DNA of 64,000 nucleotides, taken from Isurus oxyrinchus. Taxonomy: Eukaryota. Position numbers and translations under genes: made by a program. Below, one piece after another: positions 1,511 to 63,965 of the stretch. The stretch is from positions 179,428,001 to 179,492,000 of the forward strand of contig JANJGN010000007.1 of the NCBI GenBank assembly GCA_026770705.1. The letters are read 5' to 3'. The notes under the pieces are model-generated. The model worked only from the letters and a program-made list of their open reading frames with translations. It was not told where the DNA came from and ran no database searches. Each line of letters begins with the position of its first letter. Within the stretch, counting starts at the first letter, position 1.

Positions 1511-4500
1511 TGGTGATGAACATCCACCTATCACCGAGACATCACAAGATCCAAAAGTCCAAGAGGAAGAAGATAAATGTCATGGACCGAAAGGAGGAAT
1601 TCCAAGTGAAGCTCAAACCAGTGTGGAAAATCTTCACACATCTAACTCAATTTCAAAACAGTTGGATCAAATAAAGTCAGCTGTACTCGACTCCTGTGCC
1701 CAGACCATTGGGTTCAAGCATTGTCGTCTCCAGGACTGGTTCGACGAAAACCATGCCGAAATGTGTGACCTGGAACAAAAAGAAGCAGCTTGCGTTGCTT
1801 AGTAGAACAACCCAAAAGGTCTCACAAGTCAAGAAGGCACCATTCCAACAGCTCAAGGCTAATGCCCAAAGACAAATCTGGAAGATAAAGGCCATGTGGA
1901 TGGGAAGAGAGAGCCTGAGAGATCCAGCTATAGGCTGACCATCATGATATGTGAAGCTTTTATGAAGCCACAAGGATCACCTATAGACCAATGTCAAATG
2001 GACAAAATCCCCATCGCTCATAGGATAGTGTTTCTCTTCTCAAGGTTAAAAATGTCATCCATCAACATTGGAAAGAACATTTGGAGTATCTCCTCAACTG
2101 TGAATCCACAGTGGCAGCTTCCCCCAGTACCCTGGGAAATACCTTGATTGTTTCCACAGCATGATTCATCTCCTCTCCTGAAGATAGTTACAACTGTCAC
2201 AGTCCTGAGTCATGGAGACAGAATCTTTGGATGAACCACCATCAATGAGAGAGCTGCAAAAAGCAATCAAGAGGATGAAAAGTATAGAATCGATGGTATT
2301 CCAGCTGAGGTCTTCAAAGCTTATTCTCACATTGAGATTCCACGCACTCATCCTATGGATTTGGGAGGAAAAAGAACTCCCTGTCCCCATGACTCAGGAC
2401 TGTGACAACTGTAACTATCTTCAGGAAAGGAGATGAATCATGCTGTGGAAACGATCGAGGTATTTCCCTCGTGTCCATGCAGGGAAAATCCTGACATGCA
2501 CTCCTGAATCCTAAATGTCTTGTGGCTGAGGAAATCCTCCCAGATACAGTGTGGCTTTAGACCTTCCACAGGAACCTTTGATTCAGTCCATATAGCCAGA
2601 AATCCTAGAGAGATGTCAAGAACACCACCAGGATCTCTTCATTGCATTTATTGACCTGATGACATTTAATTTGCAAGGCTCTGTGGATTGTGCTCCAAAG
2701 GTTTAGATGTTCATGAAACTTCATCATAATTCTGCACCTGCTTCATGATTTTTTAAAAAAATGTGTTCATGTGATGTGGGCATTGCTGGTTAGGCCAGTA
2801 TTTATTGCCCATCGCTAATTGTCCTGGAGAAGATGGTGAACAGCCGCCTTGAATTGCGGCTGTCTGTGGTGTAGGTATGCCCACAGTGGTGTTAGCGAGG
2901 GAGTTGCAGGATTTTGACCCAGTGACAGTGAAGAAAACGATATATTTCCAAATCAGGATGTTGTGTGGCTTGTAGGGGAACTTCCAGGTAGTGGTGTTCC
3001 CATGTGTCTGCTGCCCTTGTCCTTCTAGATTGGAGTGGTTGTGGGTTTGGAAAGTGCTATCTTAAGATGGCTTGGTGAGTTCCTGCATTGCATCTTGTAG
3101 GTGATGCACACTACTGCCACTGTACATTGGTGGTGGAGGGAGTGAATGTTTGTGGATGTTGTGCCATTTAAGTGGACTGCTTTGTCCTGGTTGGTGTCAA
3201 GCTTCTTGAGTGTTGTTGGAGCTTCACTCATCCAGGCAAGTGGGGAGTATTCCATTGCACTCCTGACTTGTGTTATGTAGATGGTTGTCAGGCTTTGGGG
3301 AGTCAGGAGGTGAGTTACTTGCTACAGAATTCCTAGACTCTGACCTGCTCTTGGAGCCACAGTATTTATGTGGCTAGTCCAGTTCCGTTTCTGGCCAGTG
3401 GTAACCCCCCCAGGATGTTGATAGTGGGGATTCAGAGATGGTAATGCCATTAAAGGTCAAGTTGCAATGGCTAGATTCTCTCTTATCGGAGATGGTCATT
3501 GGCTGGTACTTGTATGGTGTAAATGTTATTTGCCACTTGCCAGCTCAAGCCTGGATATTGTCCAGGTCTTGCTGCATTTGGACATGGACAGCCTCAGCAT
3601 TTGATGAATTGCGAATGGTGCTGAACACTGTGCAAGCATTAGCGAACATATCCACTCTGACCTTATGATGGAAGGAAAGTAATTGATGAAGCAGCTGAAG
3701 ATGGTTGGGCCAAGGACACTACCCTGAGGAACACTTGCAGTGATGCCCTGGAACTGAGATGATTGAACTCCAACAACCACAATCATCATTTTTTGTGCTA
3801 GGTATGACTCCAACCAACAGAGAGTTTTCCCCCTGATTCCCAGTTTTGCTAGGGTTCCTTGATGCCATGCTCAGTCAAATGTTGCCTTGATGTCAAGGGC
3901 AGTCACTCTCACCTCACCTCTGGAATTCAGCTCTTTTGTCCATGTTTGAACCAAGGCTGTAAGGAGGTCAGGAGCTGAGTGGCACTGGCAAAACCTAAAC
4001 TGAGCATCAGTGAGCTTGAAAGCACTATTGATGACCCCTTCCATCACCTTACTGATGATCGAGAGTAGACTGATGGGGTGGCAATTGGCTGAGTTAGATT
4101 TGTTCTGCTTTTTGTGTACAGGATATACCTGGGCAATTTTCCATATAGCCGGATCGTTGCCAGTGTTGTAGTTGCACTGGAACAGCTTGGCTAGGGACAC
4201 AGCAAGCTCTGGAGCACAAGTGTTCAGTTCTGTTGCTGGAATATTGTCAGGGCCCATAGCTTTTGCAGTATCCAGTGCCTTCAGCCATTTCTTGACATCA
4301 CGCAGAGTGAATTGAATTGGTACTTGTGATGCTGGGAACCTCCGGAGGAGGCCGAGATGGATTATCTACTCGGCACTATTGGCTGAAGATGGTTGCAAAT
4401 GCTTCAGCCTTGCCTTGTGTACTGATGTGCTGGGCTCCCCCCATCATTGAGGATGGGGATATTTGTAGAGCTGCCTTCACCAGATTTTTGTTTAATCGTC

Positions 4501-6530
4501 ATGATTGAAATTGTTCCATCTATCACTTGCTAATTATACTGTTTTACACTCAAGTAGTCCTGTGTTGTATCTTCAGGTTGACACCTCATTTTTAGATATG
4601 CCTGATGCTGCTCCTGGTATGCCCTCCTGCACTCTTAACCAGGGTTGATCCCTGGTTTGGACATAATGGTAAAGTGGGTTACATGCCGGGCCATAAGGTG
4701 ACAGATTGTGGTTGAGTACAGTTCTGCTGATGGCCCACAGCACCTCATGGTTGCCCAGTGTTGAGTTGCTAGATCTGTTTGGAGTCTGTGCTACTTAGCA
4801 TTGTGGCAGTGCCACACAACATGATGGAGGGTATCCTCAATGTGAAGGTGGAACTTCGTCTCCACAAGGAATGTGCAGTGGTCACTCCTACTGACAGTTA
4901 CGGATAGGTGCATCTGTTGCAGGCAGGTTGGTTAGGATGAGGTCAAGTGTGTTTTTCCCTCCTGTTGGATCCTGCACCACCTGCTGCAGACCTAGTCTGG
5001 CAGCTATTTTAGCCAGTTCAGTCTCTCATGGTGCTGCCAAGCCACTCTTGGTGGCCCCCACCCAGAGGACATTTTGAGTCCTTGCAACCCTCATCACATC
5101 CTCCAAGTGCTGTTCAATGTGGAGACTGATTCATCAGCTGAGCGGTATGCTAAGTGGTAGTTACCAGGAGACTTCCTTGTTCATGTTTGATCTGACGCCC
5201 TGAGACTTCATGGGGTCCGGGGTCGATGTTGAGGACTGTATACCACTGTTCCGCCACCTTTGCTTGGTCTGTCCTACTAGTGGGAGGGAATGGTGGTTTC
5301 TGGGACATTGTCTATAAGGTATGATTCCGTGAGGATGAATATGTCAGGCTGTTGCTTGACTAGACTGAGAGACACCTCTCCCAATTTTGGCACTAGCCCC
5401 CCAGGCAAGGAGAATTTTGGAGGGTTGAGAGGGCTGAGTTTGCCGCTGTTGTTGTTGTTTCTGGTGCCTTGGTCGATGTCGTGTGGTCTGTCCGTTTCTT
5501 TCGGACTTGGCAATGGTTTGATACAACTGAGTGGTTTGCTTGGCCAATTCAGAGGGCATTTAAAAGACAAATGTAGGCCAGACCAGGTAAAGACTGCAGA
5601 TTTCCCTCCCTAAAGGACATTAATGAACCAGATGGGTTTTCATGACACTCGACAGTCGTTTTGTGGTCATCATTCGACTTTTAATTCCAGGTTTTTATTG
5701 GTTTCAAATTTCACCACCTGATGTGGTGGGATTCGAACCATGTTCCCAGAGCATTATTCTCGGTCTCTGGATTACTGGTCCAGTGACAATACCACTATGC
5801 CATTACCTCCCCTAAATGATATTCTGACTGCAACAGTCTCAAGTGGGAGGTCTGAAACAGATGCCGTCAAAATCCAGACCGATGTCGAGCAATACTGTGT
5901 GATCGCCTCCATACTATTCACAATCTACCTGACAGTGGCTACTCACCTCATCAAAGATAATTGTACTTCTGTGTGAATATCAACACTACCTAGATGGAAA
6001 ACCCTTTAACCTCTGTCCGAAAACTAAACTGCTGACTATAGAAATAAATAATCTAAGGTTTGCAGATGACTGCAGTGTCATTGTCCACTCTCTAGCAGAT
6101 TTGCAAGCCACTCTATCTCTTAAATTCTGCCTACAAGAGGCTTGGCTTGTCCTTGAATATTTCCAAAACAAAACTCATTAACCACACCTGGTCAGCCAAA
6201 TATTTAACCTTGCATATATGTTGAAGGAGAGACTCTGGAATATGTTGAGACCTCCCATACCTTTGCAGGTACCTCTCTCAAAAGGCTACAGTTGACGAGG
6301 TGATGCAACACTGGATCAACTGCACCAGCTAAGACTTCTATAAATAATGGCAGAGAGCCCGAGTGTGAAGAGCAGTTGTCATCATCACTTTCCTGTACTA
6401 CAGTGAGACCTGGACTGTGTATCAATGACACAAAAACACTTGAGAAATTCCATCAGCAATGCCTCTGCTGCATCCTTTGGATTCAGTGGGAGGACTGTTG
6501 AACAAATGTTTGTCCTTAGACTCAGACATT
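1510..6530 (+). mobile_element. Decayed RTE-clade LINE, split by the LINE inserted at 2750-5815
   Basis: RTE-like remnants (DWFDEN, FIDL, LLHD|ILTATV across the insertion, FADD, SETWTVY, ILWIQW). Confidence 0.7.
2750..5815 (-). mobile_element. Full-length single-ORF CR1-group (Crack/L2-like) LINE with a tRNA-derived 5' head
   Basis: The minus strand starts GGGGAGGTAATGGCATAGTGG...GGTTCGAATCCC, followed by APE (QQPDIFILTESYL), RT ([29 protein letters not shown]) and an A-rich tail. TSD ATGAT at 2745-2749 and 5816-5820. Confidence 0.88.
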
Positions 6531-6539
6531 TACAGCACA

Positions 6540-8275
6540 ATTGGCTCATCGTGTCCGGAATGGTCTACAAAGATCTGACTACGCTGATCCCATTTTCCAG
6601 CGCTTGGCCCATAGTCCTGGAGGCTATGGTAACACGAGTGAATATCTAAATACTACTTAAATGTTACAAGGGTTTGTGACTCAACCACCCTTTCAAGCGG
6701 TGAGTTCCAGACTCCCATCACCCTCTGGGTGAAAACATTTCTCTTCAAATCTACTCTTATCCTTCCACCTCTTATCTTAAATCTCTGCCCACTCTTTATT
6801 GACCCCTCTACTAATAGAAAAAGTGCATTCCAATCCACCCTATCTATGCCCCTCATAATTTTATACAATTTATCAGGTCCCCTCTCAACCTTCGCTGCTC
6901 CAAGGAAAACAGCCCCAGCCTATCCAATCTTTCCTCATAGCTCAGACCCTCCAGCCCAGACAGGATCCTGGTAAATCTCCTCTGCACCCTCTCTAGTGCA
7001 ATCACATCCTTCCCATAATGTGGTGACCAGAACTGCACGCAATACTCCAATTGTGACCTAACCAGCTTTTTATGCAGTAACATCATAATCTTCCCACTCA
7101 GCTAATAAAGGCAAGTATCCCATATGCCTTCTTAACCACCTTATCTACCAGCCCTGCTACCTTCAGTGATCTGTGGATATGCAGACCAAAGTCCCTCTGA
7201 TCTTCAGTACTTTCCAGGGCCCTACCAATCATTGTGTAATCCCTTGCCTCGTTAACCTTCCCCAAGTGCGTAACCTCACACTTTTCCGGGTTGAATTCCA
7301 TTTGCCACTGCTCTGCCCACCTTACCAGTCTATTGCTATCCTCCTGTAGTATACGGCTATCCTCCTCACTATTTATCACCCTACCACTTTTTGTGTCACC
7401 CGTGAACTTCTTAATCATACCCCCTACATTTAAGTCCTAATCATTTATGTACACCACAGACAGCAAGGGCCCCAGCACCGAGCCCTGTGGAACCCCACTA
7501 GAAACAGACTTCCAATCACAGAAACATCTCTCTGCCGTCGCCCTCCGCTTTCTGCCTCTCAGCCATTTTTGGATCCAACATGCCACTTTGCCTTGGATCC
7601 CCTGGGCTCTTACTTTCTTGACCAGTCTGCCATGAGGGACCTTATCAGAAGCCTTGCTAAAGTCCATGTAGACCACATCAAATGCATTATCCTCATCAAC
7701 ACTCCTCGTTCCTCAAAAAATTCGATCATATTTGTCAAACACGACTTTCCCTTATCAAACCCATGCTGACGATCTCTGATTAATCCATGTCTCTAAAAGT
7801 GCAGATATATTCCGTCCTTCAGAATTTTTTCTAGTAGCTTCCCCACTACCAAGGTTAGACTGACTGGCCTGTAATTTCCTGGCCTATCCCTTCCTCCCTT
7901 TTTGAATAATGGGATGACATTAGCAGTCCTCTGGCATCTCACCTGTGGCCAGAGAGGATTTGAAAATTACTGCCAGGGCCCCTGATATTTCTTCCCTTGC
8001 CTCCCTCAACAGCCATCCCGTCCGGGCCTGTAGATTTATCCAATTTTAAGGCTGCTAAACCCGCTAATATCTCCTCTCTCTCTCTATGTAACTTCCTCTA
8101 ATATTTCACAGTCCTCCACCCTGATGTCTATACCTGCGTTGACTTTTTCCATTGTGAAGACCGACTGAAAGTACATTCAGTACTGACCCACGTCTTCCGG
8201 GCCCACACACATTACCTCTATGGTTCCTAATTGGCCCTACTCTTTTCTTAGTTATTCCCTTGCTTTTTATATATT
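6540..8275 (-). mobile_element. CR1-clade LINE, 3' half
   Basis: [41 protein letters not shown] and [11 protein letters not shown] remnants. Confidence 0.9.
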
Positions 8276-8280
8276 TAAAT

Positions 8281-11200
8281 GGGGAGGTGATGGCGTAGTG
8301 GTATTATTGCTGGATTAGTAATCCAGAGACCCAAGGTAATGCTCTGGGGACCCAGGTTCCCACCTTGGTGGGGTTCAATAAAAATCTGTAATTAAAGGTC
8401 TAATGATGACCATGAAACCATTGCTGATTGTTGTAAAAACCCATCTGGTTCACTAATATCGTTTAGGGAAGGAAACCTGTCGCCTACATGTGACTCCAGA
8501 CCTACAGCAATGTGGTTGACTCTTAAATGCCCTCTGAAATGGCCTAGCAAGCCACTCAGTTGTAACAAACCGCTACAAAGGCACAAAAAGGGAATGAAAG
8601 CAGATGGACCACGCAACATCAACATAGGCACTGAAACGACAAAGGCAATCGCAGCCCTGTTGAGAGACCTCCTTACTAACATCAGGGGGCTAGTGCCAAA
8701 ATTGGGAGAGCTGTCTCACAGACTAGTCAAGCAACAGCCTGACATAGTCATCCTCATGGAATCATACCTCACAGATAATGTCCCAGACTCCTCCACCACC
8801 ACCCCTGGGTATGTCCTGTCCCACCGGCAGGACAGACCCAGCAGAGGCAACGGCACAGTGGAATACAGTTGGGAGGGAGTTGCCCTGGGAAACACCAACA
8901 TCGATTCCGGACCCTGTGAACTCTCATGCCATCAGATCAAACATGGTAAGGAAACCTTCGGCTGAGTACCACGTACTGCCCTCCCTCAGCTGAAGAATCA
9001 GTACTCCTCCATGTTGAACATCACTCGGAGGAAGCATGGAAGGTGGCTAGGACGCAGAATGCACTCTGGGTGGAGGACTTCAATGTCCATCACCAAAAGT
9101 GGCTCGGTAGCACCACTATAGACTGAGCTGGCCAAGTTCTAAAGGATTTGGCTGCTACACTGGGTCTGCAGCAGCTGGTGAGGGAACCCCCCTTCCCCAA
9201 TTAGGAACCATAGAGGTAATGTGTGTGGGCCCGGAAGACGTGGGTCAGTCCTGAATGTACTTTCAGTCGGTCTTCACATTGGAAAGGGACAACGCATGTA
9301 TAGGCATCAGGGTGGAGGACTGTGAAATATTAGAGGAAGTTACATAGAGAGAGAGGAGGTATTAGCAGGTTTAGCAGCCTTAAAATTGGAAAAATCTACA
9401 GGCCCGGATGGGATGGCTGTTGAGGGAGGCAAGGGGAGAAATATCAGGGGCCTTGACAGTAATTTTCAAATCCTTGAACATACTTGACCTCACCCTCACC
9501 AACCTGCCTGCTGCAGATGCATCTGTCCATGACAGTATTGGTACGAGTGACCACTGCACCATTATTGTGGAGATGAAGTCCTTCCTTCACATTGAGGGTT
9601 CCCTCCGTTGTGTTGTGTGGCACTACCACCATGCTAAATGGAATAGATTTCAAACAGATCTAGCAACTCAAGTCTGGGCATCCATGAGTTGCAGTGGGCC
9701 ATCAGCAGCAGCAGAATACCACTCAAACACAATCTGTAACCTCATGGCCCGGCATATCCCCCTCTCTACCATTACCATCAAGCTAGGGAATCAACCCTGG
9801 TTCAATGAAGAGTGCAGGAGGTCATGCCAGGAGCAGCACCAGGCTTACCTAAAAATTAGGTGTCAACCTGGTGAAGCTATAATACAGGGCCAAACAGCAT
9901 AAGCAGTAAATGATAGACCGAGCTAAGCGATCCCACAACCAACAGATCAGATCTAAGCTCTGCAGTCCTGCCACATCCAGCTGTGAATGGTGATGGACTA
10001 CTAAACTCACTGGAGGAGGAGACTCGACAAATATCCCCATCCTCAATGATGGGGGAGCCCAGCACATCAGTGCAAAAGATAAAGCTGAAGAATTTGCAAC
10101 AATCTTCAGCCAGAAGTGCCGAGTGGATGATCCATCTTGGCTTCCTACAGAGTTCCCCAGCATCACAGATGCCAGTCTTCAGCCAATTCGATTTATTCCA
10201 TGTGATATCAAGAAACGGCTGAAAGCACTGGATACTGCAAAGGCGATGGGCCCTGACAATATTCCAGCAATTGTACTGAAGACTTGTGCTCCAGAACTTG
10301 CTGCACCCTTAGCCAAGCTGTTCCAGTACAGGCATCTACTCAGCTATGTGGAAAATTGCCCAGGTATGTCCTGAACACAAAAAGCAGGACAAATCCAACC
10401 CGGCCAGTTACTGGCCCATCAGTCTACTCTCCATCATCAGTAAAGTAATGGAAGGGGTCATCAGCAGTGCTATCAATTGACACTTGCTTAGCAATAAAAA
10501 CCCAGTTTGGGTTTTGCTGGGGCCATTCAGCTCCTGACCTCATTACAGGCTTGGTTCAAACATGGACGAAAGAGTTGAACTCCTGAGCTGAGGTGAGGGT
10601 GACTGCCCTTGACAGACATAAAGGCAACTTCTGACTGAGTGTGGCATCAAGAAGCCCTAGCAAAACTGGAGTCAATGGGAATCGGGGGAAACTGTCAGCT
10701 GGTTGGAGCCATACCTAGCACAAAGGAAGATGTGGTTGTTGGAGGTCAGTCACCTCAGCTCCAGGACGTTCCTCAGGATAGTACCCTCAGCCCAACTATC
10801 TTAAGCTGCTTCCTCAATGACCTTTCTTCCATCATAAAATCAGAAGTGGGGTTGTTTGCTGCTGATTGTGCAATGTTCACCATTCGCGACTCCTCAGATG
10901 CTGAAGCAGTCCATGTCCAAATGCAGCAAGATCTAGACAATATCCAGTTTGGGCTGACAAGTGGCAAGTAACATTTGCACCACACAAATGCCAGGCAATG
11001 ACCATCTCCAACAAGAGAGAATCCAACCATCACCCCATGACATTAAATGGCATTACCATCACTGAATCCTCCACTATCAACATCCTGGGGGTTGCCACTG
11101 GCCAGAAACTGAATTGGACGAGCCACATAAATACTGTGGCTATAAGAGCAGATCAGATGCTAGGAATCCTGCAGCGAGTAACTCACCTCCTGACTCCCCA

Positions 11201-11740
11201 AAGCCTGTCTACCATCTACAAGGCACAAGTTAGGAATGTGATGAAAACTCCTCATTTGCTTGGATGAGTGCAGCTCCCACAACACTTAAGAAGCTTGACA
11301 GTGTCCAGGACAAAACAGCCCGCTTGATTGGCACCACATCCACGAACATTCAGTCCCTCCACCACTGACGCACAGTAGCGGCAGTGTGCACCATCCTCAA
11401 GATGCACTGCAGGAATTCACGAAGGCTCCTTCGACAACACTTTTAAAACCCACAACCCCTACCATCTAGAAGGATAAGGGCAGCAGAGGTTCCCCTCCAA
11501 ATCACTTGGAAGTTGCACTCCAAGTCACTTACCATCCTGACTTAGAAATGTGTAGCTGTTCCTTAACTGTTGCTGAGTCAAAATCCTGGAACTCCCTCCC
11601 TAACAGCACTGTGGGTGTACCTACACTGCAGCGTTTCAAGAAGGCAGCTCACCTCCACCTTGTCAAGGGTAACTCTGGAAGGGCAATAAATGCTGCCCCA
11701 GCCAGCAGAGCCCACACCCTGTGAATGAATAAAAAAAAAA
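8281..11740 (+). mobile_element. Full-length single-ORF CR1-group (Crack/L2-like) LINE with a tRNA-derived 5' head, second copy
   Basis: Starts GGGGAGGTGATGGCGTAGTGG...CTGGATTAGTAATCCAG. APE (TNIRGLVPKLGEL..QQPDIVILMESYL, DFN, SDH), RT and C-terminal region follow. Ends CACACCCTGTGAATGAATAAAAAAAAAAA. Confidence 0.9.
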
Positions 11741-26800: not shown

Positions 26801-29800
26801 TCGGTCAATGTTTCCCTTAAACCTTTATTCATCTGTGGTGTCTCATTATTGTTTTGTTTGGCCTTGTTTTTCAGCAGAACATTTTTTTCCAGGACACTGA
26901 ACACCATTTTAAATATTCCCCATTGCTATTCTACATCGTTGTTTGCCAATATTGTTGTCCATTTTATTTTTCTAAGTTCTATTCCCCGTCCCTTGAAATC
27001 AACTTTTCCCCAGGCTGTTAGCTGGTTGTCTTCATAATTATGGCCTCAATTATTACCTTAGAACATATTATATTATGGTCACTATTTCCTAGATGTTCCC
27101 CTACTCTTAATTGTTCTGGCTCATTCTCCATTTGTCGACCCCTTCTTGGGCTTCATAAATAATGGATTGAAAGGAGTCCTGTACACTTTGTAGGAACTCT
27201 ATTCCTTTACCCCTTTACCTGCCTGTTCTGGCCAGTTAATTTCAAGATCTGGGAGATGGTGGCATAGTGGTAATGTCGCTGGGGACTAGTAATCCAGAGA
27301 CCAAGGCTAATGCTCTGGGGACTTGGGTTCAAATCCCACCGCGACATCTGGTGGAATTTGAATTCAGTTCATAAATCTGGAACGTAAAGCTAGCCGCAGT
27401 GATAGTGACCATGAAACTACCTTCGATTGTCGCAAAAACCTAAATGATTCACGAGTGTTCTTTAGGGGAGGAAATCTGCCATCCTTAACTAGCCTGACCG
27501 ACATGTGACTCCAGACCCACAGCAATGTGGTTGACTCTTTGCTGCCCTCTGAAATGACCTAGCAATATTAGTTCAAGGGCAATTAGGGACGGGCAACAGC
27601 CTTGCCAGTGCTGCCCACATCCCATGAAAGAATAAAAAAAAGTTAGAATCTCCCATGATTCTATTTTTTTGATTTATTTTCCTAGTTCATCTGTATATTT
27701 CTTCCTGCACCTTCCTTCCTCCTGAGAGGCCTGTAGACGACATCTATTATTGTGATTGATACTTGATCATCTTTTACCTCTATCCATGTGGCTCTATTTC
27801 TGCCTTACTGACAGCTGTCACTTCTTTCTCCTGCTATTATGTTACATCTTAATTAAAGTGTCGCGACTCCCATTTCCCCTTTTTTCCCCGCTCTATCTTT
27901 TACAAATGTTGTATTCTGCAGTGTTTAATTCCCAGTCCTCATTACGCTGTAGCCATGTCTCAGTAATCTCCACTATATCTGCCTCCAGGCAATGTGTTAT
28001 TGCGATGAAAGTAAAATATTTCAGATGCTGGAAAGCTGAAATAAAAACAAATATTGCTGGAAAAACTCAGCAAATCTGGCAGCATCTGTGGAGAGAGAAA
28101 CAGAGTTAATGTTTCTAGTCTGTATGACTCTTTAAAGCTTGCATTTATAATGTATTATTGCCCCCAGTTTCCCTGTTCTATTACCTGCATTGCTGTACAG
28201 TTTAAGTCAGTTTGAATAGAAGTTCTTTTCATTTTATTCCTTTTGCACTTCTGTTCTATAACTATATATTCTTTGACCACTTAGCTCAACCTGCCCTGTG
28301 GTCTCATTTTAAGTTTGGTTTATATTTAGACTTTTGATTTGTTGTGAATCCTCCACTATCTTGCCCAATCCTACCACTGTATTTGTAGTGCATCTTTATT
28401 TAGCCTTTACATTAGGATAGTGGTCCCATTCTAGTTTAGGTGAAGCCTGACCTATTGATACAATTCCCTCCTGTCCCAGTACTTGTGCCAGTGCCCTGTT
28501 AAAAAAAACCTTTCTTTACTGCACCAACCTTTTGGTCACTTTTTAATTCCCCTGATCTGTCTGTAAATGTGCATGTGGCTTGGGCAATATCTAGTGATCT
28601 TTACTGTTCAGGTCCTGCTTTTGAATTTAACTCTTAACTCCTGTTACTCCCTCAGCAGATCCTTCCCCCTGTTTCTACTTGCGTAATTTGTTCTGATGAG
28701 AACCACAACAAATTGATTTTCCCCCACTCTTTCCAAATTTGATTCCAGCCGCCTCGAGCTATCCCTTACTCTGACACTGGGTAGGCAACACACGCTTTGG
28801 GACTCTGATTCATGGCTGCAGACGATGCTATTTATTCCCCTAATTATACAATCCCCTATCAATACCTCATTTCTGTTCACTCTCCACCAGCCTAATCCTT
28901 CCTTCCGCCAAACCTTCTAGACCATGATGCCTTGGTCTGCACTGTGGCTGTCCTGAATACAGCCTTGCTGTTTGCCTTCGCAGGCAGCGAGCACATTGTA
29001 CCGGTTAGACAGGACCAATGCCTATGGGGCCTCCTTTACAACCTCTCCTAAGCTACCCCGCTCTGACAGTCACACTCTTCTTCCTGAACCTGTGTTTTTC
29101 CCAAGGGTGTGACTGTGCTCTGGATAGAACTATCCAGAAATTTATCTCCCTCCCTTATGCTTCGGAGTGTCTGTAAATCTCACTCCAGCTGAAAGACCCT
29201 GAGCCAGAGTGGCTGAAGGCAGAGGCATTTTTTGTATGTGTGACAATCCAGCACAGTGACAGCCTGTCTGTCCATAAACTCTCAGATGCTATAGTTTCAA
29301 CATAGAGCTTGTCCTGCCATCTCTCATCTTTTTATTTATTTGTTTATAGATAACTTGAAATAAAATTAGGTATATCTGATGTGACTAAGTGACCACTGAA
29401 GGCAGTTGTGTGCCAACCACGTTGGTGAAGCACTGGAGTTACTGATTGATGAGGGTTGTTTACAAGGTAATGTGGAGCCGCCTTTTTGAACCACTGCATG
29501 TAGGTACACCCACAGCGCTGTTAGGGAGTGAGTTCCAGGATTTTGACCCACCGACAGTGAAGGAACGGCGATATGTTTCCAAGTCAGGATGGTGAGTGGT
29601 TTGGAGGGGAACTTGCAGGTGCTGGTGTGCCCATGCATCCGCTGCCCTTATCCTTCTTGGTGACAGAGGGTGCAAGTTTGGAAGGTGATGTTGAAAGAGC
29701 CTTGGTGAGTTGCTGCAGTGCATCTTGTAGATGGTACTCATTGTTACCGCTGTGCGTCGGTGGTGGAGGGAATTAATATTTGTGGATGGGGTGCCAATCA

Positions 29801-32800: not shown

Positions 32801-35800
32801 CTATGAAGCACCTAGGAATGTTTAATTAGGTTGAAGGTACTATTAAATCAACAACTTGTATTTATACATTCCATCAGAAAGGCAATACAGTACTCTTCAT
32901 TGCATCTGTTCAAAACATCATAAAGTCATAATTATGTTCTGCAGATTTTTAAAAAACTCTGCTTCTCTCCCTTTTTAGAGGTGTGATGCTTGCTAGGTTG
33001 CAGTTCCAAAGTTCACTGTTGTCTTAACGTGCATCACACACAAGACTGCAATGTTGCTCAGTTCCTGCTGATGGTGCTCTAGAGGTGTGGAGGCATTCCC
33101 ATAATCAGCTGTGTGATCAGCATGAAGCGTATGTTACTGCAGCTCTTATTCCAAAGCATTTTGTGAGTTGTGAACTGAGTTGGTTCGCTTGTTGGAAGCA
33201 TTGAACATCTGAGTTGCAAAGACCAGAAGTTCCAGATTCAGCTCCTGATATGCTTGCATTAATGTAGGGCCATTCACAACCTTTTAATTGCAGCTCCAGC
33301 AACATTCAAAAGCTTGACGTCATCCAGGACACAGCTGCCTGCTTTATTTGCACCCCATTCACCACCTTAAACATTCACCCACTTAACCACTGATGCACAG
33401 TGACAGCTGTGTACACCATCTACAAGATGCACTGCAGCAACTCACCAAACCTTTTTTGACATTCAGGCTTGGGCTGATAAATAGCAAGGAACATGCTTGC
33501 CACATGAGTGCCAGGCAATAGAGAATTTAAACATTTCCTCTTGACTTTCAATGGGATTACCGTCGCTGAATCCCCCACTGTCAACATCTTGGGGGTTACC
33601 ATTGACCAGAACCTGAACTGGACTAGCCATATAAATACTGTGGCTACAAGAGCAGGTCAGAGGCTGGGAATTATGTGACATGTAACTCATCTCCGGACTC
33701 ACCAAAATCTGTCCACCGTTGCTACAAGGCACAAGTCAGGAGTGTGATGGAATACTCTCCACTGTCTTGGATGAGTGCAGCTCCCACAACACTCAAGAAG
33801 GTCGACACCATCCAGGACAAAGCAGCTTGCAGGATTGACATCCAATCCACAAACGTTCACCACCGACACAGTGGCAGCAGTGTGTACCACCTACAAGATG
33901 CATTGCAGTAACTTGCCAAGCCTCCTTCGATAGAACCTTCCAAACCCACAGCCTGTACCATCTAGAAGGACAAGGGCAGCAGTTGCAAGGGAACGCCACC
34001 ACCTGCAAAGTTCCCCTCCAAGCCACATTCCACCCTGACTTGGGAACTATATTGCTGTTCCTTCACTTGCTGGCGTCAAAATTCTGAGACTCCCATCCTA
34101 ATAGTGCTGTGGGTGTACCTACACCACATGGAATGTAGTGATTCAAGGAAGAGACTCATCACCACCTTTTTGGGGGCAACTAGGGATGGGCAACACCAGC
34201 GACGTCCACACCCTGTGAATAAAAAAACGAAGAAAGCGTTCAGGATGTCTCAAAGCATTTTACAGCTAGTTATGTACTTCTGTTCTAAAGAAGAGTATTG
34301 GTCTTGAAGCGTTGACTCTCTTTCTCTGTTTGCAGATCCTGCCAGACCTTCTGAGTTTTTCCATCACTTTCTGTTTTTATTTCAGATCTCCAACATCTGC
34401 AATATTTTCATTTTATATAATGTACTTCTAAATATGGGCACTGTCGTGATGTAGAGATTTGCAGCAGCTAGTTTTTGCACAAAGAGATAATTGACCTGTT
34501 TTTGATCGAGAGTCTTAGGATCTGAAAAATGAACTGTACCTGCTTCTACACAGATGCTATTTCGTAAATCGTACACTTCCAGTATCTGGAGTAATATACT
34601 TTAAATTTGGCTGAGTGGGAGACTGACCAGAAATTGGGAGAAAAATGGGATAGGTATGTTATGGTTCGAGGGGTATAAGTTAGGAAAAGGTATGACAAGG
34701 TTGAAGGCGCTTTGGAACAGAATTTGAGTGCACAAGTATAACAATAGTTTCAGGCAGGAGACCTTTGATCCTTCGTGCCCACCTACCTGCAGTCCATCTG
34801 TGTCAGCCATGGCTGAGTGGTAGCACTCTCGGCCCTGAGTCAGATTGTGTGTTCATTTGTTTTTTTCACTCACGGAATGCCAAGGCCAAGATTTATTGCC
34901 TTTGAAGCTGGGGGTGGGACACCTTCTTGAATGGTTGCAGTTCTAAGATGTGGCTTGGTACAGCTGAATGGCTTCTTCGGCCATTTCAGAGTCAGCCACA
35001 TTGCTGTGGACCTGGAGTCACATATAGGCGAGACCTGGTAAGGCTAAGGAAAGGACTTTAGTGAACCCAGATGTTTTAAACAATCTGGTAGTCAGATAGT
35101 CACTGTGACTGCAAACTTTTTATTCTAGACTTATTTAATTAACTGAATATAAGTTCCCAGCTACTGTGATGGGATTTAAAGCCGTGCTTTTTGATTGGTA
35201 GTCCAGGCCTCTGGATTTCTAGCCCAGTGACATAACGACTATGCTACCAATCCAGAGATTTGAGCCAATAATCTAACCTGTCACTCCAGTTACAGACTCA
35301 GGGAGTCCTGCACTGTCAGAGGTACCGTCTTTTGGGTGAAATGTTAAACTTCCTGCGCTCCCATGCTGCAAGTTCTTTCAAATCTCAGGAAGGATATATT
35401 GGCCTTGGAATGGCTGCAGCAGAGATTCACCAGAATGATACTGGGACTTAGAGTTAAACAATGAGGACAGGTTGCATCGCCTTGGTTTATATTATCTCAA
35501 ATTTAGAAGGTTGAGGAACAACCTAATCAAGGCCTTGAACATGTTAAAGCAATTTCATTGTAGCTGAAAAACAAGTCACAGTGTGTTCCTACAGGCATTT
35601 GGCAGCAGCCCTGAGGGTAACCTTGCTGGATTTGCATTAAGGTACATCACTGGGCAAACACAGAGCTGAACTAGCCTAGCAGGTTTACTTTGCGGCTGCT
35701 GTGTGTTGAGACCTAGCACAACGGTTGCAGTTGGGATTTTTTTTGTTGTCAGTTGATGAGCTGGTCAGTATTGTGTATTGAAGGCTTTGAGCCCTCACTG

Positions 35801-41800: not shown

Positions 41801-44800
41801 CCGTCGCTGACTCCCCCAGTACTACATCCTGGGGTTGGTGGGGGGGTGATGTTATCATTGACTAGGAGCTGACTTAGAGCAGCCATATAAAGACTTTGGC
41901 CGCAAGGTCAGAGGCTTGGATTCCTGCGGCAGATAATTCACCACCTGACTCCCCAAAGCCTGTCCTCCATCTACAGGGCACAAATCTGGAGTGTGATGGA
42001 ATACCTTCCGCTTGTCTGGATGAGTGCAGCTCCAACAGCACTCAAGAAGCTTAATACCTTTCAGAACAAAGCAGTTCTTTTGATTGGCATCTCATTCACC
42101 ATGTTAAACATTCACTCCATTCTCACAAGTGCACTGCGGCAGCAGTGTGTACCATCTACAAGATGCACTGCAGCAACAAGTCAAGCTTCCCTTGACAGCA
42201 CCTCCCAAACCTGAGAACTCTGTCACTTAGAAGGACAAAGGGTAGCAAGCACATGGGAACATCACCACCAGCAGGTTTCCCTCCAAGTCACACACCATCC
42301 TGACTTGGAATTATATGGGCGTCCCTTCACTGTCGCTGGTTCAAAATCCTGGAACTCCTTTCCCAACTGCACCACGTAGACTGCAGAGGTTCAAGAAGGT
42401 GGCTCACCACGACCTTCTCAAGGGACATTAGGGATGGGCAACAAATGCTGGCCTTGTCAGCGATGCTCACATCCCGTTGTTAAGATGCAGCGGATGACGT
42501 GTGGCAGGTGGATCAAATCCACAAGGGAAATTCGATCATGCTATCACAATGGCTTTGCAATTTGTATTTATTTTGAGATGCGTGCCCTGAATTCAGAAAT
42601 AATAAGTCAGAGATTTTTTAAAAACTAACATTAAAATATTAATTAACAAAAGAGAAGATTTCAAGCACATACATAGGACTACAGATCACTACTATAATAA
42701 CTCGTAAAATCCCTAATTAACCTGGCTCCCAGTTACACCCCCTTTAAGGCAACAGTCCAAAAATAGATTTTTTAGATGTTAAACAGATCCAGCAAGTTTC
42801 CACTATCCAGGGTGTTGTGCTATTCGAAGTGGCTTTCTTCAACTTTGGTTTTTGTAGACAGCAGACTTCATGCACAAATCCTGGAGACTTCACACTCTTC
42901 TGTTAGATCTTACGATGCCTTCTCCTGACACACAGCCTCATTCTCCTTTATATAAGTTTCAGTCTTTTTAATATGTAAATTCCATTGTTGTACTATCTCT
43001 TTGGAACTTAAACCTTTCTTATAATGTTACTATTGTTCTCATTAACCTCTTTGAAATTCACTCCCCCTCATCTATCTAAAAATGCAAATTCCATTTACAT
43101 CTTACATGCTAAGACTCCAAACATGTTTACTCATTAGCATATTAAAGACACGTCTACACCTTACTACCTTTGATAACTTCAACTTGCAGTCTGCTTGGCT
43201 ACAAAATGTAATTAAATCTCTCTCACACACGCAAAAACACAACCCCCATAAACTCACCACAATAAACTAGAAAAATATTACGAAAATTATTATACACTCA
43301 TAACACCCATGAAAGAGCAAAAAAAAATTCCCCTGCCCTTTGTGTGGGGAAGGTCCTCCTTAATTTTGTCTCATGATTAGCTCTAATTTTAACGTTGTGT
43401 CCTTTTGTTCTAGATTCCAAACCAGAGGAAATAATTTCTCTGGATCAGTTTTATTTCCTTACCTCTCCTTTAGTGCATGGAATATAAGTCAAACCATCTT
43501 CAGCCCAATGCACATCTGTGGCCTGCACTCAGCCAAAAACACCATGGCTGTACCAGACTCCATGTTTAACTTGCTGAACAGAATCTTCCTGAAACAGACC
43601 ATCACAGGTCCTCCATTTTAAAACAAGGAAAGGAGTAGCCTCCATTTTTAATTTGGGTTGCTTGAATCCAGTTAATATATTAATGTTCATGTCTGTGCAC
43701 AATTTGTCAACACTTTGCACTTATGGATTCTGATGTCAGATGAAAATGTAATCTTATCTGAAGTTGGGAGTTGCTGTAATTATATCCTTAAATTGAAGGT
43801 ACTGTAGCACGATTACTGGTGGAGTGTGTAACTTTTTAAAATTAATTTACGGGATGTTGGCTTCGCTGGCTGGGCCAGCTTTTATTGCCCATCCCTAGTT
43901 GCCCTTGAGAAGGTGGTGGAGAGCTGCCTCTTTGAACCCCTGCAGTCCATGTGGTGTAGGTACACCCACAGTGCTGTTAGGAAGGGAGTTCCAGAATTTT
44001 GACCCAGCGGCAATCAGGAACAGCGATACATTTCCAAGTCAGGATGGTGAGTGACTTGGAGGGTTACTTCCAGGTGGTGATGTTCCCATCTATCTGCAGC
44101 CCTTGTCCTTCTAGATGGTAGTGATCGTGGGTTTGGAAGGTGTTGTCTAAGGAGCCTTAGTGAATTCCTGCGGTATGACAAGTTTATGTAGCATTTTTCC
44201 ATTAAAATTATGGCCATAGAATTTATAATAAAAATATAAGGAGGACAGAATTTATGACTTCAAACTGGAAGCTGAGTGAGAACACGTACTTTGTAGCAAC
44301 GATCCCTTCTAACCCTGCTTTACCCGATGACGGTACTGGATTCAGACTCTTTTTGTGCAATTCCAAGGGAGATTGGTAAGGATTTAAAATACCTATAAAA
44401 AAAAAAAATCTAGCAATGCCAAAGTTCCCTTTTTGTCAACTTGTCAAGGATTTTACTTGAATACTGTTGTACAAATGTTTGCTTCTGGTGATAAAGTTGT
44501 ATAAGTGGTCCTATTACTGCGCTATTAATCCAGAGAGCAAGATTTCAAACCCCACTTGGACAGTTTGAGAATTTGAATTTGGTTTCAAAAATCAGAAATA
44601 AGGAAAACTTGCCTCAGTAAAAGTGACAATGAAGATGTTGGATGATTGTTAAAAATTCAACTGGTTAACTAGTTCTTTCAGGAAGAAAATCTGTATTTAA
44701 CCCGTCAGGGCTTATTGTATGTATCTCAGTCCCACAGCAATGTGGTTGACTCTTAACTAACCTCTTGTGGCCTGGCAAGGCACTCAGTTGTATCAACCTT

Positions 44801-47800
44801 CTACAACAAGGCCAGCCATCACATTGACAGTGTAATGTATAATTGCCAATGAGGTCTACATCCTGAAAATAAAAAGAAGTCTCGAATAGAGCATGAGCAG
44901 AAGAAATAGGAGCAGGAGGAGGCTATTCTGTCCTTCAAACGTGCTTGGTTATTCAATGAGATCATGGCTGATCTACCTTGACTCCACTTTGCCGCACTAT
45001 CTCCATATCCCTTAATACCCTTGAAACCCAAAAATCTATTAATCTCTGCCTTGCGTATACTCAACAACAAAGCATGCATAGCTCTCTGGGTCAAGAATTC
45101 CAAAGATTCATAACCTCCTCAGTCCAAAATGGTCAATATCTCTGCCATTTCTATACCAGACTGATTCCTGGGATGGCACAATTGTCGTATGAGGAGAAAT
45201 TGGGCTGACTAGGCCTGTATTCACTGGAATATAGAAGAATGAGAGGAGATCTCATTGATAAGTATAAAATTCTGACAGGGCTGGACAGACTGGATGCTGA
45301 GATGATATTTCCCCTGGCTGGGGGATCTAGAACACAATCTCAGGATACGGTTTAGGCCATTTGGGACTGAGATGACGAGAAGCTTCTTCACTCAGAGGGT
45401 GGTGAAGCTGTGGAATTCTCTACCAAAAGGCTGTGGAGGCCAAGTTACTGAATATATTTAAGAAGGAAATAGATTTCTGAACTCTAAAGACGTCAGTGGG
45501 GATGGGGAGAGAGCGAGAGTGTGGCATCGATAGAGGGTCAGCCATGATCATATGGAATGGCAGAGCAGGCTCAAAGGGCCAAATGACAATTGTGGTGTCA
45601 TGACTGTGATCCCATGTTCTAGGCTTCCCAGTCAGGGAAACATCCTCCCAGCAAAAAGGACCCTGTTAAGTCCCTTAAACTGGCCAGCAGGCTGCATGAG
45701 TGTTAAAATTCTGCTCTGGTCAGTTCTGATGAAAAGATCATCAATCTGAAATCTGTATCGCCCTCCACTGATGTTGCCAGGCTTAATGAGTGCTTAAAGT
45801 ATATTCTGTTTTTATTTTGAATAAGAATATTTTCCACCAGTTGGTGAGATTTAAAGTTGCTGTTATTTGTTGCAGATATCTGGCCGTACCAGCACTTCCC
45901 AGACTGTATACACAACAACCTTAACTGGTGTGGGCAGCCATCACACCATTATGTCTCAAGCCCCAACCCAGACCACCGCTTCACTTCAGCCCCAATCTGC
46001 AACCAAGACACAACTGCAAGTCCATCCTCAAGTTATACCCAGTTCCCCGCTGCCAGGAACACCCGCAGTTACACAGGTCTTTGTGGTCGCATTGATTTCT
46101 TTAAGAAATACTTTTCTTAAAAATTGACTTTACCAATTCTCTTCAAGAGATCCAGGATGTGGTGGTGAATGTGTTTAACCTTATTTGTGTTCTTGTCTCC
46201 TCCTCTACCCTAGGTTTCCCTGGCACCACATCCTGCTGCACCCCTGGCGAAAGCTGGACAGGTAACCTAGCCTGAGCTGATGTCACTCTTCAGCTGGCTG
46301 CTGGGACGCATGTGATCTGATCTGATCTGGCAGTGACTGAGACACAAATCTTCCCTTTTCCTGTGGAGGAGGTGCCTATGATTAACCTAGCAACGTCCTG
46401 TAGCTCTGTGCTGCCGGACACGCTGCCCAAAAAGGAACTTGCAGAGCTGACAAATGAACCCCTCGTTAATTCCTGTTCATAATGCCTGAGACGTCGACTA
46501 AATTTTTTGTTGAGGGAATTTGAACTGGTTCGTTCAGTAGATGAATACATCACCCAGTGCCAGACTCATTCTTGGAGATCAGGATGAGCCCAGACTCTCT
46601 CAGCAGTCTGTGCTATGATAACTCAACTCAGCCAGAGCAGCAGCACTGGGTCGAGTAGAAGTCAAATCAGCCAGCGTCACCATTCCTGCTCATTTCCCTC
46701 TGTTCCTTGCTGTGTGTGTGTGTGTTTTTGTCTGTCCATATGTGTGAGGTTTCAGTGGGATCAAGTTTGGCAGCGATGCCACATGCAGTTGAATAGGTTG
46801 TGATGTCTTTCACACTTGAATGGTGTGCCAGTGCTCTCATGGAGTTAAGTGAGGTACCGAATGTTTGACAGTGCTTAGGGAACTGAGTGCTAGCAAAAGT
46901 AACAACCTTCAGGAGTAGAAGGGAGAGCAATCCAGAAAAATGAATGGAATTGTGTAGGGATGCTTTTGGTGTTAGAGAATTTAGATTGTAAAGTTTAACA
47001 AGAAATCCATTCTTTGTGAGAATTTTACTGTATTGTTTCTGCAAACTGGAATTGTCAACAACCTTTTAACAAAAACCAAATGTTGATGGGGCAGCTTGCT
47101 GGGAGGGCTTACTGACTGTGTGAGCGAGCTGGATTAACATCAGTAGTGACTTGGTCAGTAACGAGGCTCCTAGGAGAGAGATGCTCATAATTTTGCTTCC
47201 CTGGCCTTGGAAGTGGAGAAACTTAAGCTTGGGTTTCTGCTCCTGATTGCTTTCTGGCAGTCCGAGTTTGGCACTTCCTTTGGATATTCCTTCAGTGAAA
47301 GGTGCTATATAAATGCAAGTTGTCATTGTACATGTGTATGGACAACAAGCAAGGGTAGCATTGGATTGCTGTAGTCACTGTTTGTACAGCCAGGACTACT
47401 CAACTCAGAGGAGGCTATTTGGGCTGTCATGTTTCTCCGCTTTCTCCATAGCCCTGTATCATTCGCTGATGCAAATGTTTATTTGATCTTCCTTCAAAGA
47501 ATACAATGATTTCTGCCTCAGTTGCTCCCTGTGGCAAAACGTTTGATGTTCCAGTAATCCTCTATCTAGAGGTTTCTTGTCTCTCTCTCTTCACTTCCTT
47601 AGTGACAGTGCTAAATTCATGACCCCTTGTCATTGACGCTCCGACCAGAGGAAATTGTTTTTACCTGTTTACTCTATGAAGACCCTTGGAAATTTAAATA
47701 TTGCGATTATAGCTCTGGCTTGCAAGCCTATAACAATTTAGAGGCTACATGGAGCTGAATAGAAAGCGTCTCAATCCTTGGTTTCTGGGCTACACATTCA

Positions 47801-61387: not shown

Positions 61388-61780
61388 ATTTTATTCTTCC
61401 ATGGGATGTGGGTGTCATTGGCAAGACCAGAATTTGTTGCCCATCCCTAATTGCCCTTGAACTGAGTGATTTGCGCCGACATTTCAGAGAACATTTAACA
61501 GTCAACCACATTGCTGGGGGCCTGGAGTCACACGTAGGCCAGACAAGGCAAAGACACATTTACTTCCCGAAAAGGCATTGGTGAACCAGATGAGTTTTTA
61601 AGACAATTGAAGGTTTCGTGGTCACCATCACTGAGATTAGCTTTCAATTCCTGGTTTTATTATTTAATCTAAATTCCGATTGCTGCCTCGGTAATATTTG
61701 AACACATGCCTGTCCCCAGAAGATTAACCTGTGCATTTGGATTACCAGTCCAGTGATGTTACCATTATTGCACCGCCTCT
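61388..61780 (-). mobile_element. tRNA-headed SINE of the same type as 27251-27640, inserted in a PLE-derived fragment
   Basis: The reverse complement shows the head CTGGACTGGTAATCC, the body GACTCCAGG..CAGCAATGTGGTTGAC, the junction CACTCAGTTCAAGGGCAATTAGGG and the family tail. Confidence 0.8.
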
Positions 61781-62154
61781 CACCCTCTCTGGAGAAAGAA
61801 ACAGAGTTAATGGTTCAGGTCAATGACCTATCAAACCTCCTGCATTCTCTGACTTTCTCTTACTTCCTTCTTTTTAGCTGTTTTTTCCATTTCCTTTCAT
61901 CCTTTTTCTTTTTTTTTTCTTGTCTTGGAATCATAATATTTGAAATTTTTGGCGAGTTTAGGATGAAATGGGGTCGAAGAAGACTGGGTGGAGCAAGCAC
62001 ACGGTGATATAAGTTAAGAGCTGGACCATGTTCCTTTAAACTTGCTCCACCATTCAGTAAGATCATGGCTGATCTTCTCCACCAAATCTTTCCCACCTGA
62101 TCCCACATCCCTTGATTCCCTGAGTGTCCAAAAATCCATTGAACTCTGTCTTGA

Positions 62155-63965
62155 ATTTTTAAAAAAAATTAATTCATGGGATGTGGGCTTTGCTGGCTGG
62201 GCCAGCATTTATTGCCCATCTCTAGTTGCCCTTGAGAAGGTGGTGGTGAGCTGCCTCCTTGAACCGCTGCAGTCCTTGCGGTGTAGGTACACCCACTGTA
62301 CTGTTAGGAAGGGAGTTCCAGGATTTTGACCCAGTGAATGTGAAGGAACGACGATATATTTCCAAGTCAGGATGGTGAGTGACTTGGAGAGGGAAGCTTC
62401 CAGGTGGTGGTGTTCCCATCTATCTGCTGCCCTTGTCCTGCTAGATGGTAGTGGTCGTGGGTTTGGAAGGTGCTGATAAGGATCCTTGGTGAATTCCTGC
62501 AGTGCATCTTGTAGATGGTACACTCTGCTGCTACTGTGCATCGGTGGTGGAGGGTATGAATGTTTGTGGATGTGATGCCAATCAAGTGGACTGCTTTGTC
62601 GTGGATGGTATCCAGCTTCTTCAGTGTTGTGGGAACTGTACTCCTCCAGGCAAGTGGGGAGCATTCCATCATACTCCTGACTTGTGCCTTGTAGATGATG
62701 GTCAGGCTTTGGGGAGTCAGGAGGTGAGTTACTCGTCGCACAATTCCTAGCCTCTGACCTGCTCTTGTAGCCACAGTATTTATATGGCTAGCCCAGTTCA
62801 GTTTCTGGTCAATGGTAATCCCCAAGATGTTGATAGTGGGGGATTCAGTTATGGTAATGCCATTGAACATTAAGGGGCGATGATTAGATTCTCTCTGGTT
62901 CTAGTTGGTCATTGCCTGGCACTTGTGTGGCACGAATGTTACTTGCCACTTGTCAGCCCAAGCCTGGATATTTTGCAGGTCTTGCTGCATTTGGACGTGG
63001 ATCGCTTCAGTATCTGAGGAGTCGCGAATGGTGCTGAACATTGTGCAATCATCAGCAAACATCCCCACTCCTGACTTTATGATGGAAGGAAGGTCATTGA
63101 GGAAACAGCTGAAGATGGTTGGGCCTAGGACACTACCCTGAGGAACTCCTGCAGTGATGTCCTGAAGTTGAGATGACTGACCTCCAACGACCACAACCAT
63201 CTTCCTTTGTGCTATGTGTGACTCCCACCAGCTGAGAGTTTTGCCCCTGATTCCCATTGACTCCAGTTTTGCTAGGGCTCCTTGATGCCACACTCGGTCA
63301 AAAGCAGCCTTGATTGTCAAGGGCAGTCACTGTCACCTCACCTCCGGAGTTCAGCTCTTTTGCCCATGCTTGAGCCAAGGCTGTAATGAGGCCAGGAGCT
63401 GAGTGGCCCTAGCGGAATCCAAATTGGGTATCAGTGAGCAGGTTATTGATAAGCAAGTGTCGCTTGATAGCACTGTTGATGACCCCTTCCGTTACTTTAC
63501 TGATGATCGACAGTAGACTGATGGGTAATTGGCGGGTTGGATTTGTGCTCCTTTTTGTGTACAGGACATACCTGGGCAGTTTTCCACATTGCCGAGTAGA
63601 TGCCAGTGTTGCCATGCCCCTAGCCAAGCTGTTCCAGCTACAAGTTCTGAAGCATAGGCCTTCGGTACTATTGCTGGAATATTGTCAGGGCCCATAGCCT
63701 TTACAGTATCCAGTGCTTTCAGCCCTTTTTTAATATCACTTTGAGTGAATCGAATTGGCTGAAGACTGGCATCTGTGATGCTGGGGACCTCTGAAGGAGG
63801 CCGAGATGGATCATCCACTCAGCACTTCTGGCTGAAGATTGTTTCAAATGCTTCAGCCTTATCTTTTGCACTGATGTGCTGGGCTCCTCCGTCATTGACG
63901 ATGGGGATATTTGTGGAGCTTCCTCCTCCAGTGAGTTGTTTAATTGCCCACCACCATTCACGATA
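62155..63965 (-). mobile_element. tRNA-headed LINE family, RT and 3' half (well preserved)
   Basis: [67 protein letters not shown]; A-rich tail at ~62155. Confidence 0.9.

Follow-up and report, generated by a model that had tools for sequence, protein, structure and literature searches.

In the standard picture, the heads and bodies of SINEs arise apart from the partner LINE, and the tail alone is shared. The locus described here, a 64,000-nucleotide stretch of Isurus oxyrinchus DNA (the window), raises the question of whether a whole SINE can come from its LINE: head, body and tail of the SINEs found in it all lie within the partner LINE. These SINEs consist of the first ~316 and the last ~75 bases of a tRNA-headed Zenon LINE. 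We consider it likely that this LINE gave rise to them through internal deletions in the course of its evolution, on no fewer than two and probably on three occasions. If this is true, internal deletion of a headed LINE is a one-step route to new SINEs. New SINE families could then be placed on the LINE's own history as dated, repeated, one-step origins in a family of ~1e5 SINE copies.

SINE copies and the headed LINE

The window contains four short elements with the first ~300 bases of the headed LINE (Table 1). Against the LINE majority sequence, derived from 16 full-length copies, the 27251 copy aligns at 3-305 and then at 3217-3292, and the 61389 copy at 5-316 and then at 3217-3288. The local scores of these two copies were 378 and 296 for the head and 91 and 96 for the tail, against shuffled maxima of 29-34. 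This confirms that the SINE at 27251-27641 is the two ends of a 3.3-kb, single-ORF headed LINE joined together. An earlier note on this DNA had described both copies as the start of the LINE joined straight to its end. This description was borne out, except that the 5′ part measures ~316 nt and not ~280 nt. The junction CACTCAG-TTCAAGGG, given there for the 61389 copy, is present as stated; in the 27251 copy, the junction has a variant form (J1b).

In the 34856 copy, the head extends to ~320 and the tail begins at ~3161 (tail score 61 against a shuffled maximum of 35), so that it retains more LINE sequence on each side of the junction, as had been noted. The 44487 copy had been said to differ again. 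Its head is indeed clear to ~333 (score 197); its tail scored 44 against a shuffled 32 in one alignment and was below threshold in another, and is so badly decayed that the junction cannot be placed. With the 34850 and 44490 copies as family queries, only partial matches of 68-90% identity, mostly heads, were obtained. The long junction of the 34856 copy, searched for as a pattern, had only 2 exact matches, and no family is therefore assigned to it.

Table 1. Positions of the SINE copies, their parts and the LINE copies in the window
Feature	Position	Strand	Remarks
SINE, J1b junction, A-type head	27251..27641	+	LINE nt ~1-316, then LINE nt 3217-end; join at 27572/27573
tRNA-like head of the 27251 SINE	27251..27345	+	A box TGGCATAGTGG, anticodon-like arm (loop CTAGTAA), second arm-like hairpin, B box GGTTCAAATCC
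LINE-derived tail of the 27251 SINE	27573..27641	+	final ORF codons, short 3′ UTR stem-loop, A-rich end
SINE, J1 junction (LINE 316 -> 3217), A-type head	61389..61782	-	
Old SINE, C-type head	34856..35257	-	long junction ~320 -> 3161 at common TGTA[T/C]C word
Old decayed SINE-like copy	44487..44878	+	clear head (A or C type), weak tail
Full-length headed Zenon LINE, B-type head	8281..11739	+	broken ORF (frameshifts, stops); foreign sequence of 288 bp inserted at 9189-9476
Full-length headed Zenon LINE, B-type head	2748..5812	-	broken ORF
Headless LINE fragment	62168..63963	-	longest of ten in the window
Nine further headless LINE fragments	25657-26354, 29464-30004, 33289-33461, 33461-34193, 37594-38951, 41487-42475, 43833-44174, 52312-53076, 53073-53488		

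The headed LINE is a real unit. Among 20 fetched loci, which were the best matches to the head plus the start of the ORF, the LINE body follows in all 20, and 19 extend as far as the 3′ region. The majority sequence (14 fetched and 2 window copies) is 3293 nt long, and the copies are 87-94% identical to it. It contains one 932-codon frame with two stops, and the ORF ends at 3227. Pfam Exo_endo_phos/_2 and RVT_1 were above the cut-off in open stretches of all four LINE copies scanned. The headed LINE has no ORF1, just ~430 nt before the endonuclease motif, and its 3′ ends are A-rich. A protein search gave RT/APE relatives at 32-43% identity, few of them named, which did not indicate the clade. 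Compared by eye with the first 400 nt of published consensuses, the element appears to be a Zenon LINE (CR1 group). Its body types follow the head types described below: the A and C majorities differ from the B majority by 4.6% and 11.5%, respectively, where covered.

The insert in the 8281 LINE (288 bp) matches an old CR1 sequence immediately upstream of this LINE (7955-8234) at 94% identity, in inverted orientation. Because other CR1 copies match it at ~70% only, the insert is a local inverted duplication younger than the LINE insertion, perhaps produced by a repair template switch. At the edge of an older canonical CR1 fragment (- strand, 6500-8275) lies the 8281 LINE. Another short local inverted duplication (2134-2221 and 2381-2468; 88 bp, 93%) lies within sequence that resembles a LINE fragment by eye. 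The window further contains three related ~100-bp repeats of another small family (22735-22822, 28005-28132 and 34303-34416), a 58-bp direct tandem duplication with 98% identity (54379-54501), and a GT-rich tandem array of 1.8 kb, built of ~33-nt units (58530-60340), in which spurious long open frames gave no Pfam match.

In the head, the A box is followed by an arm with the loop CTAGTAA and by another arm-like unit of 21 nt, with the B box last. An A box with at most one mismatch to the consensus is present in 72 of 92 SINE heads and 72 of 84 LINE heads; for the B box, the counts are 78/92 and 70/84. ARAGORN at a relaxed threshold called tRNA-Thr(AGT) on the majority head, and standard tRNA detection over the whole window made no call. 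The Rfam tRNA family was the top match on two single heads, below gathering (E 0.56 and 0.14). In 21 heads the hairpins are 84% paired, with a covariation score not above shuffles (30/500), and the folds of single copies are weak. Between head types, the boxes are no less variable than the head positions around them (5/22 vs 21/88), a point against Pol III transcription of the LINE. The anticodon-like arm seems to be tandemly duplicated at head positions 30-71 (window 27280-27322), most clearly in C-type heads; in the second arm copy, two pairs are changed on both sides from type C to types A/B, at a covariation that is not significant.

Junctions, head types and the number of births

In LINE coordinates, the junctions are J1, 316->3217 (with the variant J1b); J2, 293->3218; J4, 316->3215; and J3, 319->3189. 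Exact junction 26-mers gave 2013, 2114, 263 and 32 matches for J1, J2, J4 and J3, respectively, and reversed controls gave 0; these counts do not rank the families by size, since exact matches drop with age. Thus, the SINEs have at least four amplified junction types, and the suggestion of more than one breakpoint holds. Junctions longer than these, with no demonstrated family, are found in old copies (window 34856-35257, L184, L186, L286, L331 and L332). Microhomology at the junctions is 0-2 nt in J1, J2 and J4 and ~6 nt in the 34856 copy.

Abundance was estimated from an unbiased sample of 80 evenly chosen 10-kb stretches (800 kb) of the 4.98-Gb genome. The sample contained 16 SINEs with head and tail, 3 headed LINEs, 37 5′-truncated LINE copies and 7 head-only pieces, one of which (L087) is an internally deleted LINE. 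Extrapolation to the genome gives ~100,000 SINEs (57,000-160,000) and ~19,000 headed LINEs (4,000-55,000). Seven of the 80 stretches (L115, L119, L123, L133, L138, L142 and L157) are nearly all repeat by self-comparison, probably satellite. Target-site duplications were not above chance: a match of at least 6 nt flanked 6 of 58 copies, against 4.5 in shuffled pairings. The SINE copies tested are old, and CR1-group insertions often have no clear target-site duplications.

The LINE heads fall into three types, B (64), A (12) and C (8). When the 92 SINE heads were compared with profiles made from LINE heads only, all 28 J2 heads were assigned to B, all 16 J1b and 25 of 30 J1 heads to A, and 11 of 13 long-junction heads to C; five SINEs with other junctions were mixed. 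Among the loci found by pattern (15 J4 and 12 J3), those with full heads were B in 5/5 J4 and C in 6/6 J3.

A head tree was built from 53 heads, up to seven per class, leaving out incomplete heads, five unclassified SINEs and seven discordant SINEs (five J1-called with C heads and two long-junction with A heads). LINE_B, J2 and J4 form a starred clade (100/98), as do LINE_C and J3 (100/99; 5 of 6 LINE_C rows). J1 and J1b fall outside a starred clade of LINE_A, LINE_B, J2 and J4, with the exception of one J1 row, the window 61389 copy. The AU test rejects a single SINE clade (p 1e-85), J1+J2+J4 (3e-5) and J1+J3 (2e-5), and does not reject J2+J4 (p 0.40); the split between SINEs and LINEs was set beforehand, and the subgroups were chosen after a first tree. 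An 8-nt head deletion is present in 51/54 LINE_B, 27/28 J2 and 5/5 J4, and in 0/42 J1/J1b.

The diagnostic sites form a ladder. The oldest states are common to LINE_C and J3. J1 shows the step-1 changes but is still in the C state at 158 and 282. In LINE_A, sites 158, 161 and 282 have all reached the later state, and LINE_B, J2 and J4 add seven substitutions and the 8-nt deletion. None of the LINE heads obtained is exactly at the J1 stage. These results show three successive LINE head types, C being the oldest, followed by A and B, and a pairing of SINEs with LINEs in which J3 goes with C, J1 lies between C and A, and J2/J4 go with B. Consensus heads of other species fit C as the oldest: by eye, the dogfish head is type C and the white-shark head type B.

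Paired subfamilies are similarly diverged from their own majorities: 15% in LINE_C and 16% in C-type SINEs, 13% in both LINE_A and J1, and 10% in LINE_B and 9% in J2. These values are biased downward, as most copies were collected by similarity search with queries specific to each class, a procedure that favors near-copies. The earlier note had proposed that SINE heads nested within the LINE-head diversity would support an origin by deletion, and had counted against it either a single shared junction together with SINEs much older than every headed LINE copy, or non-homologous heads. The nesting holds, and the single SINE clade is rejected; the junctions are several and amplified, the heads are homologous, and the divergence of SINEs and LINEs is similar.

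The tails give a corresponding picture. The site after GGCC. is T in LINE_C (2/2), J3 (18/25), J1 (21/25) and J1b (15/16), and A in LINE_A (5/6), LINE_B (19/19), J2 (27/28) and J4 (13/15). Four sites, three in the head (158, 161 and 282) and this one in the tail, thus distinguish LINE_A from the J1 stage, and in J2 and J4 all of them are in the later state. J1-specific states at two other tail sites (C 22/25 and A 22/25) are missing from most J2/J4; they occur in LINE copies and not in J3. At one tail site, J3 has T (21/25), yet both LINE_C copies have C.

Since J2/J4 have LINE-A/B states in head and tail that J1 lacks, there were likely at least two births, probably three. Both ends of J2/J4 come from the later LINE lineage, so that one deletion from a B-stage LINE explains both; J2 could be a 25-nt deletion of J4. 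J1 is likely to be a third birth: its head is unlike that of J3, and at two tail sites it departs from J3 and matches some LINE copies; this reading depends on few LINE tails (2 LINE_C and 6 LINE_A). To judge from the sequences, the descent of J1 and of J2/J4 from within the LINE diversity appears firm, and J3 is paired with LINE_C without polarity. The repeated birth of SINE subfamilies by deletion from the headed LINE, one of two origins that the earlier note had offered, is therefore the best reading of the several junctions and nested heads. The other, an ORF captured inside a SINE, is disfavored as worded. SINE tails begin at 3189-3218, within the final codons of the LINE ORF, and the SINE 3′ part is thus native LINE sequence.

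The deletions themselves would result from a template jump of the LINE reverse transcriptase or from DNA repair at microhomologies of 1-6 nt. For products that keep the A and B boxes and the 3′ stem-loop, Pol III would supply the transcript and the LINE endonuclease-RT would copy it in trans, and each such product would be a ready-made SINE. Selection would favor products that retain the boxes and the stem-loop; the need to keep the latter may be why the 3′ breakpoints cluster at 3161-3218. The majority tail has a fold of -23.7 kcal/mol, a value without a shuffle control. Headed copies are often internally deleted with both ends kept (e.g., L064, L075, L262, L298 and L301), as in the single LINE copies L298 (1247->3196) and L301 (1817->3197).

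An alternative is that the SINE came first: a J3-like tRNA-SINE with a Zenon tail would have given its head and 250-nt body to a 5′-truncated Zenon, creating the headed LINE, and only the later SINEs would be deletion products. The absence of an in-frame ATG before the endonuclease motif, as in a truncated LINE with a grafted front, agrees with this order of events, as do the lack of the head in the first 400 nt of the hagfish and coelacanth Zenon consensuses and the age of J3, which equals that of LINE_C. However, old copies (34856-35257, L331 and L332) reach farther into the LINE on both sides than J3 does, and no SINE class older than LINE_C was found. We regard this order as unlikely. It touches the first event only; the births of J1 and J2/J4 stand either way.

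A single old SINE lineage is improbable to a still higher degree. Here, nested deletions would shorten the junction, and head and tail would be renewed from LINE RNA of the same period, through recombination or template switching, so that the pairing of heads with junctions would reflect exchange and not new births. Such module exchange is documented for SINEs (PMC5499810, PMC5786205), J1, J4 and J2 have nearly one 3′ breakpoint (3214-3218), as nested deletion would give, and J2 and J4 are not separable in the AU test. Yet J2/J4 differ from J1 at both ends, toward LINE_A/B, so that exchange must have replaced both and left nothing of the old SINE. Moreover, J4 has two more LINE tail bases than J1 and is not derivable from it by deletion, and the J1 tail states are found in LINE copies but not in J3.

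Transcription and translation of the headed LINE

In the usual view, LINEs are transcribed by Pol II and SINEs by Pol III (PMC10886601). We infer that the headed LINE and its SINEs have a promoter in common. The A and B boxes, together with the near-absence of TTTT on the sense strand, suggest Pol III transcription of the whole LINE; that the full-length element is transcribed from the Pol III promoter of its head has, on these sequence features, about an even chance of being right.

The sense strand of the LINE majority has 0 TTTT and 15 AAAA runs, and the A and C majorities have one TTTT each. Raw LINE copies contain 0.5 TTTT per kb, against 4.1-4.7 in seven overlapping CR1 control sets; the T-run controls are all canonical CR1s with 23-27% T, and no C-rich headless LINE was found when such a control was sought. 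With amino acids and codon usage fixed, the ORF contains 4 TTT runs vs 12.5 expected (0/2000 shuffles), and the deficit in four control CR1 ORFs is slight at most (P 0.04-0.54). For TTTT, 0 was observed vs 2.0 expected under the same constraint (P 0.09) and vs 3.7 with only third-position composition kept (P 0.013); under a first-order model, P was 0.21. Four presumed-RNA contig sets cover the LINE and are uninformative on strand, start or polymerase.

The head may instead be a relic. The LINE would then be made by Pol II, from a promoter in the 250-nt body or by read-through, and Pol III would be used only by the short deletion products. The scarcity of T-runs would follow from C-rich codons, and the third codon positions are in fact C-rich; the TTTT absence is weak by itself, and capped RNA is the usual route to translation. 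We give this reading somewhat less than an even chance: the deficit of TTT runs and the low TTTT density set the LINE apart from other CR1s, and consensus-conforming boxes are kept in types C, A and B and across five species.

No in-frame ATG was found before the endonuclease motif. An ATG at LINE 349, present in 54/64 B, 8/12 A and 1/8 C copies, is offset by one frame from the endonuclease frame. The latter remains open upstream, with many Arg codons, in types B, A and C alike (LINE 349-460; window 8594-8700). A non-AUG start, a frameshift or reinitiation would be needed to translate the endonuclease frame. A C-type headed LINE copy (L280:1493 onward) is without the ~120-nt linker between the head and the endonuclease motif.

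In its widest form, the proposal is of an autonomous coding element whose transcription, all through the evolution of sharks and rays, would have been by Pol III from a promoter derived from a tRNA. It would be translated with neither a cap nor an in-frame AUG and would act as a SINE factory, shedding new families in each LINE generation by a single internal deletion. We put this forward tentatively, as a possibility that falls somewhat short of probable. One reporter pair would allow a direct test both of the birth of SINEs and of whether Pol III transcribes a coding element.

Comparison with known elements

The head is already present in published Zenon consensuses (Stuart et al. 2026, PMC13343379), where the main text passes it over. 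All seven elasmobranch consensuses from five species (CarCar_, RhiTyp_, ScyCan_ and HypSab_Zenon-1 and SquAca_Zenon-1 to -3) start with the same head, and two hagfish and one coelacanth Zenon consensus have no such head in their first 400 nt. CarCar_Zenon-1 matches the B-type majority by eye over the first 400 nt, has nearly the same length (3288 vs 3293 nt), lacks an ORF1 and ends A-rich. In the main text of that paper, the words 'tRNA', 'polymerase' and 'promoter' occur 0 times and 'SINE' in a reference title only; the head, the scarcity of T-runs and derived SINEs are not described there. Our literature search, with Repbase, Dfam and most subscription papers outside it, found no description of a tRNA-headed or Pol III LINE or of these SINEs.

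Like the shark SINEs, the R2 SIDEs are non-autonomous elements in which the 5′ end of a full-length non-LTR element is joined to its 3′ end (Eickbush and Eickbush 2012, PMC3414825). However, they have a ribozyme at the 5′ end and are rare rDNA inserts, whereas the shark SINEs have a tRNA-type head and ~1e5 copies. Comparable, too, are the bipartite RTE/Vingi elements and the SINEs built on them (Bov-A/Bov-tA, AfroSINE and SINE2-1_ACar), in which, as here, the body comes from the 5′ part and the tail from the 3′ part of a LINE (Kojima 2018, PMC5786205). That paper describes the origin of conserved SINE bodies as unknown, lists only RTE, Ingi, Vingi and R2 as makers of bipartite elements, and has two steps even with a LINE-supplied body, the tRNA head being added after the deletion. 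For the shark SINEs, one step suffices because the CR1-group parent already has a tRNA head, and for the same reason the deletion product is at once a tRNA-SINE by structure. RTE-1_DAn and related elements are LINEs with a tRNA-like sequence matching SINE2 elements, as here; the passages of PMC5786205 that concern it treat this sequence as an accidental hit and leave its position, function and derived SINEs undescribed.

SacSINE1, which occurs in sharks, and the DeuSINEs likewise have a tRNA head, a body and a LINE-derived tail. ZenoSINE-type partners of Zenon have the same three parts. SacSINE1 is reported to share only the tail with an L2 (PMC5499810). Identity with SacSINE1/Deu was rejected: allowing 3 mismatches, the SINE bodies contain neither of two short Deu motifs from the alignment supplied with PMC7245038, and by eye there is only a faint TAAA..CCCA..TGG..CACT likeness. 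Meta and UCON3 SINE alignments look unlike the shark SINE body by eye. Several features of a SINE2 are present in the shark elements, namely a head with A and B boxes, a short non-coding sequence, amplification as a unit and a tail in common with a LINE.
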